A stretch of DNA of 53,716 bases, counting the filler, from Circinaria calcarea (taxonomy: Eukaryota), in the NCBI GenBank assembly GCA_051942165.1. It is 3 parts of 3 records of this genome, joined end to end, with 100 filler letters (N's around TTAATTAATTAA, not from the genome) between each part and the next. Parts side by side here need not be neighbours in the genome. Positions count along the whole stretch, not along the records: positions 17,971 to 35,794 come from JAVECS010000253.1; 2 more parts are not named here. One strand, 5' to 3'. The position numbers and the translations under genes are program-made. The notes below the pieces were generated by a model, which saw only the letters and a list, made by a program, of their open reading frames with translations, was not told the DNA's origin and ran no database searches. Below are positions 27,106-33,507 of this stretch, piece by piece; position 1 is the first letter of the stretch; each line of letters starts with the position of its first letter.

Positions 27106-27929
27106 CTAACAGCGTAGTGTCGGATAGCAAGCCGTATGCTCCACCGCCCAATCCGCCAGCGCATCCCAATCTCCGCATATCCTCAACTGGCCATCGCCGG
27201 TCTCTGTGGTTCCCCCGGGGAAAACGAGTGGCATATCGTCTGCACGGCAAACGATGGCCTGGCGGAGTACATCGTAGCAGTGGTTGACATGGTACATGGT
27301 ATCATTGAGTGACTTTCCGCCGATGAGGTCGAGCATGGCCTCACGAAGGTATATCTGGAGGAGCATGGTTATTGAGGCAACGAGTATGGGAGTTGATCAA
27401 CCGCGATGAGCTTACCACGCAATGCAACTGGTGGATTCCGTCAAGGACGTAGAGGCCCTTGGTGGAATCATCGGGCATGGCCCTAGATGGGGGAAGGTTG
27501 TGCTCCTCTGCCCAGCTGCGGGAGAGAGCTACGAAGCCGTTCACGGTGTAGGAATCCCACGCCTGCTGGGCGACGGCTTGATCATCAGAGCTGAAGGCCG
27601 TAGAGGTATGAATGGTCCGCCAGGTGGGGCGTAAGGACTTGATACCAGCTACGGGCAGCGTTAGCGAACCATTTGAAAGGAAAGTCGGAATCACAAAGGT
27701 CACTGTAGGAGCCCGCCGTCTTATCTTGCTTGCAAGCACGTAACCTCAGCGAGGTAACAATATTCAAACCAAGTAAGAGAACAATCAGAAATGCCGTGGC
27801 AGTGATCAGAATGGTTTTGCGGGCCTTGATTTTCCATGATGTAGCGAAGGAAGACTTGGGGGAGTATCCAGGAAGAAGATGGACTTCATCGCTAGCCTCG
27901 ACAGATTTGCGGATCGGCTGATAGGTCAT
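27106..27929 (-). CDS. DUF3328 / UstYa-like oxidase 1
   Basis: Three exons: N-terminal TM helix (TILITATAFLIVLLLGLNIV), QQAWDSY, GLYVLDGIHQLHCV and YHVNHCYDVLRQAIVCRADD (two HxxHC motifs), TGDGQLRICGDWDAL tail. Confidence 0.93.
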
Positions 27930-29094
27930 AGTCAACCGGAGGGCTGCCACTAGCACTGAACGATGACGACAGGGATGGGCAAGCAGCGACAGGAAAGGCA
28001 AATGTAGAAGCAGTATTTTACAGAGCCAATTCTCGATTGCAATCAGAAAAACCATCCTTCACTGAGTCGTAAGGCTTTCATTTCTGGTTCGTGCTGACAG
28101 TGTCAGAGTGGTACGGAGTAGCACTCTACGGAGTAGCTGCATACAACAGCAAGGCACATACTGCATTGCTTATCTTTACGGCATCTTCCACCCGAGCCAC
28201 ATAGCCATTGGTACGGTCTCTGTTTCTGCAGCGCTACATATCTCCTAACCTGGTCTCCAGGCCGTCCCTCATCTTGTGCCTAGGCGTGGAAGGCGGGAAA
28301 TGATTGCTGCGACTGTGCCCACGATGTTCTGGGGTAGACATTAAGTTGCTGGCATCCGCCGTACAGACGGCAAGATCCGTCCCGAAAATGTGAGTGGAGG
28401 ATTTGAGTCCTTGCAGGAACTGACACGCCATGCATGTATTCCGTACACGGCAGAGAAATTAGATGGCTGAGGCTACTACTGGTCTGGTCATCCGATCCCA
28501 TCCCTATACAGAGACCATTAACAAGCCATTGAGGTTACCTGAGTAAGGATAGTTGTTGGTCAGAAAACGGAGGTGGTATAAGATACAGTAAGTCTGGAAG
28601 ATGTTAAGGTAAGCGCGGAATGCAAATATCCCCAGCCAATCCAATTGATATTCTACTTTACGTGTAGAGTGGTCCCCACCTAGCATTGTGCTGTGTTAAT
28701 AAGCCTTTTTCCGGCCAATATAATGGCAAAGATTCTAGGGCATTAATGCCGTATATGATAAACTCCTTACCGAGCTCATCTAAATGCCCTAATTATCAAT
28801 TAACTTTCTACGTGGCAATTTTCTGTTCCTTTTATTACAAGATTATTGATAATATAATAAAAATAATAATTAGCAAGCTTTCAAACTCTTTTCTATGAAA
28901 AACAATTTGCCACGAATATGCTCTTTCCATATTTTATATAACCGACTTCTTCCGTCATGTCTTGTGTCTGTGGTTGCTCGTAAGTTGGACTGTTTATAAA
29001 CCAGGAGATTCGCGAATCCTCCTTGAACCTACTTTGAGCCTTCTCATTCCACTTCGATAATGATGCCATTATCTGAAGGAGTAAGGTTACGTTT

Positions 29095-29404
29095 TCACTT
29101 TTGTCTAATCTCCGTCCCCTCTTTTCCAGGGACAGCAGAACGCTTCCAGCCTTGGCCGATCTCCGTCCCCTCTTTTCCAGGGACAGCAGAACGCTTCCAG
29201 CCTTGTCCTATTTCAGTACCCTCTTTTCCTGGCATAGCATGTCGCCGCCAACCTTGTCCAATATCTGTTCCCTTGTTATGAGGCACTTATTTGGTTAGCC
29301 GCATGGGGTCGTTCGATGGATGCTAATAGCTTACCTGGTACTGGGGCTGCAACTCCCAAAGAGACAAGGGCAAGAGCCAAGACGAAGACACTTTTGCAAT
29401 GCAT
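29095..29404 (-). CDS. Kex2-processed repeat precursor peptide (fungal RiPP precursor), 86 aa
   Basis: Exon 29335-29404, 49-nt intron 29286-29334 (GTAAGC..GCTAAC..AAG), exon 29095-29285: MHCKSVFVLALALVSLGVA-APVPVPHNKGTDIGQGW-RR-HAMPGKEGTEIGQGW-KR-SAVPGKEGTEIGQGW-KR-SAVPGKEGTEIRQK*. It has a signal peptide and dibasic-delimited repeats, and lies between two DUF3328 genes. Confidence 0.9.
29101..29272. repeat. 51-bp coding tandem repeat (about 3.4 units) in the precursor gene
   Basis: ATCTCCGTCCCCTCTTTTCCAGGGACAGCAGAACGCTTCCAGCCTTG occurs twice exactly (from 29108 and 29159), followed by diverged units. Confidence 0.92.
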
Positions 29405-31818: not shown

Positions 31819-32641
31819 GACGAAGAGATTCCGGGCGCCGAGTCGGAAGACAGCCGGCAGAGGTGGAAAGAAGGCGGGGTGCTGTATACAACGTAATGCT
31901 ATCCGGAATCTAGACCGGGAACCGGAAACGAAAAGGCAAAATGTCCAGGCGGCCTGCACACACTCACTTCATAGCAGTATTGACAGCATGATGGCTGTCT
32001 TTATGTGCGCACCTGTCGGAGGTAGAAGGAGGACTTTACCGACCCGCCTTAGGTATCAACGCATCTTAGCAATACCCCGAGAATATCCCGTGCCTTGACG
32101 GCTCGGGTATCACGATCAGCGGCCCCGAGTACCGACACACCGGTAAGCTAGAGAACTGCACGCTAATGGCGCAATTTGGCATACCATGTAAATGTAACCT
32201 CGCACAGCAGACCGGACTACGCCACGGAGCATCTACTCCCGACGTTCGATCGAGCAGATACTCTCCCGTTAAAGGATTGTGATCCTAGCGATATTCAAGT
32301 AAGCCGGGTGTATCCCCATATACCTTGCTCTATGCAGCAAGCACATCGACACGTTCGACAGAGGCACAGCCTGGAGCGTGACAGCCGGCCTTCCTTTGCG
32401 CATGGTTAGGGTGGGAGCCTCGTTTCATTCCGGCAGCTACCCTTGTATACCTAGCACCTATCACTACCCCCATACATGAGTTTGTCTCTATCTCGCGGCG
32501 GAGGCTGCTACCCCAATTCTGCTATTGTGCTATCTCGACCTCCGCAGTCACACCCTTCAGCGCGGTATAGCCTTACATTGGGCTCGACAGTGGCCTTCAG
32601 TTTGAAGAGAGCGAGCCATTCTCACAATGCGGTCCATGTAC

Positions 32642-33507
32642 TTACCACCTGTCTACAATAATACCGTCGGTTCCATCATCACAGTGGCCGAAATGGTCCT
32701 TGATAGGGATTGCGTCGATAGAGTCTCGATAACATGCAGAATTGGCTGTAGCCCAGTCACGTAGAGCTGTCCAATCTCGGCATTTTCGAAGCTGACCATC
32801 CCCAGTCTCATTTCGTCCCCAGGTGTATAATAATGTATCGCCTGCAGTGCACATCACATACTGACGCAGGCTGTCAAAGCAATGCGTTGAATGTTCACTG
32901 GGAAAGGTCAAAGACTGTCCTCTGGCTAGTTCGAAAAAGGTCTTCCGAATTATAGTCTGGAGGCGGTCAGAGGGTATGACGCACTACTATCAAGAACTTG
33001 AAGCACTTACTAGACAGTGGAGCTGATGATAGGCGTCGATTATATACACTCCCTTACTTTTATCACTGGGCAAGCTCATGGTATCCGGTAGTCGTTTATC
33101 GATGGCCCACTTATAGTCCACAGCAACCAAACCGTGAGCGGGAATGATGGTATCCCAAGCCCTATCAACAGCCGGGATATCCTTGATATCAGGGGAGCTA
33201 TACCTCGACCACCAGGCGTATTGAGTCCATCTATCTGGAGAGGAAGAAAAATCTATTAAGATTCGATACGATATCAGCTCAATGCGTATAGATCTTAGGT
33301 TTTGTGAGACATACTGTAGACCTCATTGATCTGGCTCGACTTCTGACGAAGCACTATCACCACCAACACCGAGATTAACAGAGCAGAGATAATCAATAGA
33401 ATGTCCTTCCAGAACAGTATCGCCGCCTTTGCCATTGTCTTCAACTTGCTGTTCTTCTCAGACTCGTTCCAGCCCAATGGGGAGTAGGAATGCTCTGATG
33501 GAGCCAT
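32642..33507 (-). CDS. DUF3328 / UstYa-like oxidase 2
   Basis: Three exons: MAPSEHSYSPL, TM helix (ILLIISALLISVLVVIVL), DRAWDTI, GVYIIDAYHQLHCL, EHSTHCFDSLRQYVMCTAGDT, TGDGQLRKCRDWTAL. Confidence 0.93.

Follow-up and report, generated by a model that had tools for sequence, protein, structure and literature searches.

A 53,716-nucleotide stretch of Circinaria calcarea DNA (hereafter, the window) likely harbors an intact, compact dikaritin-type gene cluster for a RiPP (a ribosome-made peptide modified after translation) of a Lecanoromycete-like (lichen-forming) fungus, with a precursor that represents a divergent member of a widespread family. Four co-oriented minus-strand genes fill positions 27106-33507 and are transcribed in the order UstYa/DUF3328 oxidase (no. 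2), cytochrome P450, Kex2-repeat precursor and UstYa/DUF3328 oxidase (no. 1). The lower boundary (27106) is the final stop-codon base of UstYa no. 1 and the upper boundary (33507) is the A of the UstYa no. 2 ATG. A first-pass annotation of this DNA had described the same four co-oriented genes, and their strand, coordinates and Pfam matches bear this description out:

33507-32642, minus strand: UstYa/DUF3328 no. 2, with PF11807 matches and HxxHC motifs
31818-30268, minus strand: cytochrome P450, with a PF00067 match and heme motif
29404-29095, minus strand: precursor gene, with signal peptide and Kex2 repeats
27929-27106, minus strand: UstYa/DUF3328 no. 1, with PF11807 matches and HxxHC motifs

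The dikaritin-type class, which the first-pass annotation had proposed, is well supported at the level of sequence. The assignment draws on the Kex2-repeat precursor with its signal peptide, on the UstYa pair and on the P450, together with linkage of precursor to P450 in other fungi and of UstYa no. 2 to P450. All three working criteria given for dikaritins in passages of PMC9632046 have a counterpart here: a signal peptide, kexin-separated tandem repeats and an adjoining DUF3328 gene. The two UstYa genes bracket the precursor and the P450, and each encodes two HxxHC motifs.

The precursor gene encompasses 86 codons after a predicted splice. Its parts are as follows:

29404-29335, minus strand: exon 1, the predicted signal peptide, MHCKSVFVLALALVSLGVAAPVP
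29334-29286, minus strand: 49-nucleotide intron, with GTAAGC donor, GCTAAC branch and AAG acceptor
29285-29095, minus strand: exon 2, the repeats, with TGA at 29097-29095
29271-29242, minus strand: core unit 1, GTDIGQGW-RR
29220-29191, minus strand: core unit 2, GTEIGQGW-KR
29169-29140, minus strand: core unit 3, GTEIGQGW-KR
29118-29095, minus strand: decayed unit 4, GTEIRQK-TGA
29118-29044, minus strand: decayed unit 4 together with the vestige of an untranslated tail

Removal of the 49-nucleotide intron is predicted to bring the signal peptide and the repeats into one frame; the unspliced frame ends after 42 codons, ahead of all repeats. Exon 1 consists of MHCK, a 12-residue hydrophobic core (Kyte-Doolittle hydropathy 2.75) and GVAAP, and on inspection and by hydropathy it resembles a typical signal peptide. 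Exon 2 then reads VPHNK, GTDIGQGW-RR-HAMPGKE, GTEIGQGW-KR-SAVPGKE, GTEIGQGW-KR-SAVPGKE and GTEIRQK-stop. The repeat unit is 17 codons long, with dibasic sites RR, KR and KR behind the successive Trp residues, and the resulting 51-nucleotide array has a Tandem Repeats Finder score of 209, where all other arrays in the window score 69 or less. A composition count of the repeat exon (0 Tyr, 0 Phe, 0 Cys, 3 Trp and 2 His) agrees with the earlier description of a repeat free of Tyr, Phe and Cys with a C-terminal Trp as its sole common aromatic residue.

Comparison of the three intact cores over their 8 codons reveals 4 synonymous and 1 non-synonymous difference in one pair, 5 and 1 in the second and 5 and 0 in the third. 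In total, 14 differences are synonymous and two, both Asp/Glu exchanges, are non-synonymous. The peptide sequence, rather than the DNA repeat, is thus what selection maintains. The three intact GT[D/E]IGQGW units had been recognized in the first-pass annotation, which missed a decayed fourth unit with a premature TGA. Unit 4 carries three lesions (Gly to Arg, Gly to Lys and TGG to TGA), and the untranslated sequence in frame behind its TGA reads KR-NLTPSDNGIIIEVE-stop. This vestige matches the tail KR-NPTPSDNGILIEVE that is translated in the nearest relative, P0001. The last unit and the tail have been lost in this genome and three cores have been retained, though the TGA of unit 4 might be a sequencing error.

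X-Ala/X-Pro dipeptides follow the predicted signal-peptide cut (AP-VP-VP) and each Kex2 site (HA-MP and SA-VP) within 29285-29140. Such dipeptides are the pattern trimmed by a Ste13-type dipeptidyl aminopeptidase. Relatives outside the lichens have acidic spacers in their place.

Maturation could follow the established Kex2/Kex1/Ste13 processing logic, in analogy to ustiloxin and alpha-factor (PMC6514808, PMC9233826). The signal peptide would bring the 86-residue precursor into the secretory pathway, where Kex2 would cleave behind RR or KR and a Kex1-type carboxypeptidase would strip the basic pair to expose a C-terminal Trp. Ste13-type removal of the AP-VP-VP, HA-MP and SA-VP dipeptides, in the lichen version, would yield three 11-residue peptides. 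The P450 and the pair of dicopper UstYa oxidases, anchored in the membrane and facing the lumen, would then oxidize the conserved I-x-x-G-W segment, and the P450 may first hydroxylate the indole, replacing the missing tyrosinase step. These proposals for splicing, proteolysis and chemistry draw on sequence and on the known biology of the families involved; gene content, motifs, repeats, linkage and conservation of the family are direct observations.

We next consider the family to which the precursor belongs. An exhaustive phmmer search with exon 2 against 1.84 billion representatives returned 13 matches at E<=0.001, from which P0001, P0126, P0130 and P0133 were accepted as relatives. Six other matches were judged to be unrelated repeat proteins, and P0125, P0127 and P0128 were not among the sequences judged. 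A profile of the four accepted relatives retrieved 36 precursor proteins at E<=0.1. The family extends over Leotiomycetes (Botrytis, Botryotinia, Stromatinia and Tricladium), Sordariomycetes (Hypoxylon, Xylaria, Poronia, Neopestalotiopsis, Gnomoniopsis, Diaporthe and Paramyrothecium) and Eurotiomycetes (Aspergillus alliaceus and Talaromyces). All of its proteins have a hydrophobic N-terminus followed by two to four units resembling x-E-E-x-V-DGTQIAEGW-KR. We counted all units ending in GW, 92 in 37 proteins with the window included, so that the GW columns are fixed by the way units were selected. Numbering from the Trp as position 0, the residues among these 92 units are distributed as follows:

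Position -8: D in 81, E in 6
Position -7: G in 88
Position -6: T in 74
Position -5: Q in 71, L in 14
Position -4: I in 88, V in 4
Position -3: A in 76, G in 16
Position -2: E in 87, Q in 5
After the Trp: KR in 58, RR in 1, end of the protein in 33

The conserved unit can thus be written [D/E]-G-T-x-(I/V)-(A/G)-(E/Q)-G-W followed by KR. In 33 of the 37 proteins, the chain terminates exactly at a Trp. We define the family by a signal peptide and at least two units ending in (I/V)-(A/G)-(E/Q)-G-W, behind each of which comes KR or the protein terminus; judged by its sequence, the window precursor belongs to it. It departs from the family at positions -3 (G), -2 (Q) and -8 (E). Q occurs at -2 five times, in the window and in P0001 (its nearest relative) alone, so that the lichen lineage has a divergent version of the core, IGQGW. 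The faintest and most distant match, P0170 (from a transcriptome; E=0.058), has kept only (I/V)AEGW-KR, and the beta-branched residue and the Trp, four positions apart, thus appear to be the essential pair.

These results modify the first-pass view of a product matching no recognized core. The core belongs to the widespread DGTQIAEGW family of 36 proteins, of which it is a divergent member, and that part of the earlier view falls; no described product was found, and that part stands. Searches for the motif strings returned nothing relevant in open-access and bioRxiv full text (the matches listed were unrelated by title), though subscription papers could hold a prior description. The motifs were not found in three supplements of the Kex2-repeat survey PMC7329392, and the literature retrieved for DUF3328/UstYa with tryptophan or indole held nothing on such a core. 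In a protein-atlas comparison all scores fell below 0.9, with an alpha-factor-like cluster at 0.81.

Both oxidases have the features expected of UstYa/DUF3328 enzymes. Their exons are arranged as follows:

33507-33315, 33234-33011 and 32956-32642 (stop included), minus strand: UstYa no. 2
27929 to about 27704, 27648-27416 and 27354-27106, minus strand: UstYa no. 1, with an ambiguous exon 1 donor (27703 or 27694)

Both genes have three exons, with the first HxxHC motif closing exon 2 and the second lying within exon 3. The two motifs that the first-pass annotation had attributed to each protein are indeed present, as HQLHC and HVNHC in no. 1 and as HQLHC and HSTHC in no. 2. The PF11807 check suggested in that annotation was run, and exons of both genes exceed the gathering score: no. 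1 scores 43.7 and 28.1 bits (cutoff 25) and exon 3 of no. 2 scores 53.3, while the middle exon 2 of no. 2 reaches just 18.5 and stays below the cutoff. Each protein begins with a hydrophobic membrane helix (Kyte-Doolittle hydropathy 2.65 in no. 1 and 3.09 in no. 2, the latter for a 19-mer). The two are paralogues by sequence, with 48% (38/79) and 41% (25/61) identity across the two catalytic exons. In Pfam match, predicted membrane helix and HxxHC(x)nHxxHC signature, as defined for CctR, both appear to be genuine members of the family. Parts of the CctR study describe DUF3328 proteins as membrane-bound, dimeric, dioxygen-dependent binuclear-copper oxidases that require the HxxHC(x)nHxxHC residues (PMC12435403).

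The P450 gene (30268-31818) is a single 516-codon open reading frame (ORF) with a PF00067 match of 129 bits (2.5e-37). Its product has an N-terminal anchor, an ExxR motif (EGNR) at residue 358 and the heme loop FGRGPRKCIG at residue 432. We identified 475 homologues at E<=1e-30. The nearest is the ENA record P0002 (90% identical), and the nearest named relatives come from lichen formers of the Lecanoromycetes (Lobaria immixta, 64%; Circinaria, 63%; Heterodermia, 60%). In a FastTree phylogeny of 114 P450s, the window enzyme belongs to a clade of 14 rows that it shares with sequences of lichens, of Monilinia and of other Helotiales.

Precursor and P450 genes are linked in other fungi. The linkage count covers the 120 best P450 representatives together with the members of a few clusters. 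Within it, P450s of the window's family are apparently co-located, on contigs of equal length, with at least 11 of the 36 precursors. The two accession numbers lie only 2-3 apart in five cases (Gnomoniopsis, Diaporthe helianthi, Paramyrothecium, Poronia and Talaromyces amestolkiae). P0134, which shares a cluster with P0001, is apparently co-located in the same way with P0002, the closest relative of the window P450.

UstYa no. 2, too, accompanies the P450 elsewhere. A metagenome scan by P450 alignment recovered 19 loci; a UstYa gene is present solely at one of these (L001), and the precursor was not found in any of the 19. At L001 (2.6 kb), an orthologue of UstYa no. 2 (75% and 69% identical, with the three-exon layout kept) lies directly upstream of a P450 orthologue (57% identical) on the same strand. 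A Cudoniella annotation (P0020) fuses the two proteins into one, with PF11807 at residues 59-207 and PF00067 at 241-663, and its UstYa domain shows 52% identity with no. 2 and 30% with no. 1.

One 90%-identity P450 protein cluster (P0072) spans Paramyrothecium (Hypocreales), Hypoxylon and Annulohypoxylon (Xylariales) and Diaporthe eres (Diaporthales), and also takes in Lasiodiplodia (Botryosphaeriales, a Dothideomycete). The precursors that go with P450s of this cluster are likewise almost identical between these orders. Such unusually strong conservation of P450 and precursor between orders may reflect horizontal transfer of the cluster.

A comparison with characterized systems places the window closest to the dikaritins while setting its core apart. 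Ustiloxin and phomopsin (UstA/PhomA, UstYa/UstYb) share with it a signal-peptide precursor, KR-flanked tandem cores and two mutually homologous HxxHC DUF3328 oxidases, and their conserved core Ile, also present in the window, is the aliphatic crosslink partner in those peptides according to parts of PMC9233826 and PMC6514808. In contrast to these systems, the window has no core Tyr, UstQ/PhomQ, methyltransferase, S41 peptidase or zinc-finger regulator; its P450 is the conserved partner, and its C-terminal Trp is the sole aromatic residue shared among cores. Pfam scans covered 131 ORF pieces of at least 85 aa over the whole window and then 89 pieces, of which 81 were further ones (55-84 aa, 25.9-42.3 kb) and 8 were longer pieces rescanned at a laxer threshold. 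No tyrosinase domain was found in the 212 different ORF pieces, consistent with the earlier remark that no such gene is visible. Nor was a methyltransferase, an S41 or other peptidase, or a zinc-finger/PhomR-like regulator found in the two scans, so that the conserved accessories that PMC6514808 lists for Ding et al.'s 27 clusters (S41 peptidase, PhomR-like regulator and methyltransferase) have no counterpart here.

Tyr and tyrosinase are typical of dikaritins without being obligatory. The victorin core, GLKLAF, shows as much for Tyr, which it lacks; it also lacks Trp, and the window core differs from it and does carry Trp. Victorin, from Cochliobolus victoriae, is described as a dikaritin-type RiPP in PMC9632046. 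The asperipin-2a cluster likewise lacks a tyrosinase, and this enzyme thus cannot be required for the class. That system (AprA/AprY) resembles the window in being minimal: it has neither a tyrosinase nor a peptidase, and, as sections of PMC12048977 and PMC12186524 relate, a DUF3328 enzyme carries out the macrocyclization. It differs in that its core is Tyr/Phe-rich and Tyr-O linked, whereas the window core contains neither residue and is accompanied by two oxidases and a P450. Yeast alpha-factor and other Kex2-repeat proteins also have a signal peptide, KR-ended repeats and X-Ala/X-Pro spacers after the cleavage site, and dikaritin processing is likened to alpha-factor processing in PMC9233826. 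Alpha-factor, however, is neither oxidatively modified nor clustered with oxidases.

The Trp-crosslinked or Trp-oxidized cyclic peptide that the first-pass annotation had proposed as the product is plausible from sequence and fits a core that conserves Trp at 0 and, at -4, a beta-branched residue. The chemistry that we tentatively prefer, at a confidence somewhat short of even, is a macrocycle in which the beta-carbon of the conserved Ile/Val, four residues upstream, is bonded to the Trp indole. We favor this linkage because ustiloxin and phomopsin contain aromatic-to-Ile C-beta links and plant dicopper enzymes form links from Trp to sp3 carbons. Lyciumins have a C-terminal Trp and i/i+4 spacing. 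In the plant burpitides, according to parts of PMC12186524, a four-histidine dicopper enzyme joins a Trp indole to an upstream sp3 carbon, with a Trp-N to carbon bond in the lyciumin type, and PMC12435403 notes that the histidine planes of BURP and DUF3328 enzymes resemble each other. The burpitides (lyciumin and moroidin/stephanotic-acid types) would offer a mechanistic analogy only, and only if the preferred chemistry holds, as they come from another enzyme family and another kingdom; neither Pfam scan of the window gave a BURP match. Trp chemistry in fungal RiPPs reportedly has a precedent in the asperigimycins of Aspergillus flavus, for which the title of a 2025 paper by Nie et al. names an indoline-containing scaffold. 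A benzofuranoindoline needs a phenol partner on chemical grounds, and the window core offers none.

Several observations weigh against the reading of an intact cluster that crosslinks Trp. UstYa enzymes also hydroxylate, halogenate and desaturate, and their presence alone does not imply a crosslink. For the other 25 of the 36 precursors, no P450 on a contig of equal length is seen among the P450 records covered. Five other precursor-linked P450s fall in a separate 50-row clade of the FastTree phylogeny, and one well-supported 101-row group holds both clades; the precursor-P450 linkage is thus old and much diverged, or it originated on more than one occasion. Unit 4 has decayed and the tail translated in P0001 is cut off here, and some decay in this genome has to be allowed for. 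Lastly, only weak donors are available to intron 1 of UstYa no. 1, though its branch point and acceptor are good.

The first of these points bears on the alternative that fares best, in which the same RiPP cluster operates without a Trp crosslink and aliphatic residues (Ile, Thr) or the indole are hydroxylated, desaturated or oxidized to give a linear or otherwise cyclized peptide. We consider this outcome unlikely, though far from negligible. UstYa-family proteins reportedly install dehydroamino acids in phomopsins, and no sequence feature of the window fixes the reaction type. DUF3328 members are, moreover, implicated in hydroxylation, halogenation, macrocyclization and isomerization in the CctR study (PMC12435403). 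On the other side, even the most reduced relative has kept Trp and the beta-branched residue, with their spacing fixed, as a link between two residues predicts, and the UstYa reactions on RiPPs described in the cited passages all use an aromatic partner, with UstY enzymes forming Tyr-O to C-beta links in PMC12186524.

A cluster that is decaying in this genome and makes no product strikes us as improbable. The three disruptive changes of unit 4, the tail conserved in P0001 but stranded behind its stop and the weak donor in UstYa no. 1 could be read in this way. The remainder of the cluster argues for integrity: the P450 is open over 516 codons with its heme motif kept, the UstYa pair retains all four HxxHC motifs and open exons, and the three remaining cores differ almost solely at synonymous sites. 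A tail released by Kex2 would probably be dispensable, and 33 of the 37 family members do without one.

Beyond the four genes, the surroundings of the cluster include the following:

One flank of the cluster: SUR7 gene and mannitol dehydrogenase
34142-35661, plus strand, the other flank: PTH11-like membrane protein with a fungal rhodopsin domain
21073-21528, minus strand: second fungal-rhodopsin-domain (PTH11-like) gene
37843-39202, minus strand: major facilitator superfamily (MFS) transporter, about 4 kb past UstYa no. 2 along the window
42231-46311, plus strand: non-ribosomal peptide synthetase (NRPS)-like A-T-R gene with AMP-binding and NAD_binding_4 reductase domains, about 9 kb off along the window

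The MFS transporter shares its strand with the RiPP genes and could be a peptide exporter or unrelated. The NRPS-like gene is probably a separate secondary-metabolite locus; a weak condensation-like piece lies upstream of it. Two long open frames have no Pfam match at 1e-4, one at 16489-17922 (minus strand, 478 aa) and one at 52470-53714 (minus strand, 415 aa), the latter continuing past the end of the window.

The presence of the transporter and the NRPS-like gene, the commonness of Kex2-processed repeat proteins, many of which are not RiPP precursors (PMC7329392, PMC9769878), and the alpha-factor-like protein-atlas cluster, a lead rather than evidence, could together suggest that the window encodes an unmodified, Kex2-processed secreted peptide (pheromone- or effector-like) while UstYa and P450 serve another pathway such as that of the NRPS-like gene; we give this idea very little credence, as the precursor family adjoins the same P450 family in other fungal classes, UstYa no. 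2 adjoins the P450 in L001 and Cudoniella, and the four RiPP genes are contiguous and co-oriented, whereas the NRPS-like gene is on the opposite strand with unrelated genes between.

A dikaritin-type cluster with a Trp-terminal core is thus the reading that we retain, and the window looks like one lichen member of a large, conserved and uncharacterized fungal peptide family. To our knowledge, the UstYa-dependent fungal peptides known so far are few and are mostly Tyr-linked toxins with variable cores. The Tyr-free, Trp-terminal core described here barely varies over four Pezizomycotina classes (Lecanoromycetes, Leotiomycetes, Sordariomycetes and Eurotiomycetes), and it sits beside the same P450 family. 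A near-invariant Trp-terminal core with a stable P450 partner points to a new kind of crosslinking by DUF3328 dicopper enzymes. Lichen fungi, for their part, gain a RiPP cluster with a clear repeat precursor; a 2025 survey of 111 lichen-fungus genomes looked at two clans and reported conserved repeats in neither (PMC12048977). Talaromyces, Aspergillus alliaceus and Botrytis provide tractable relatives in which the product could be sought.

The unusual conservation of the core also suggests a peptide with a shared biological role. We can entertain, without expecting it, that the DGTQIAEGW family is a fungal counterpart of the plant burpitides, in which UstYa and P450 would tie the Trp indole to the Ile/Val beta-carbon in a macrocycle new for fungi, and that its peptides would serve a conserved extracellular role, as a signal or metal-binding peptide, rather than acting as a lineage-specific toxin.

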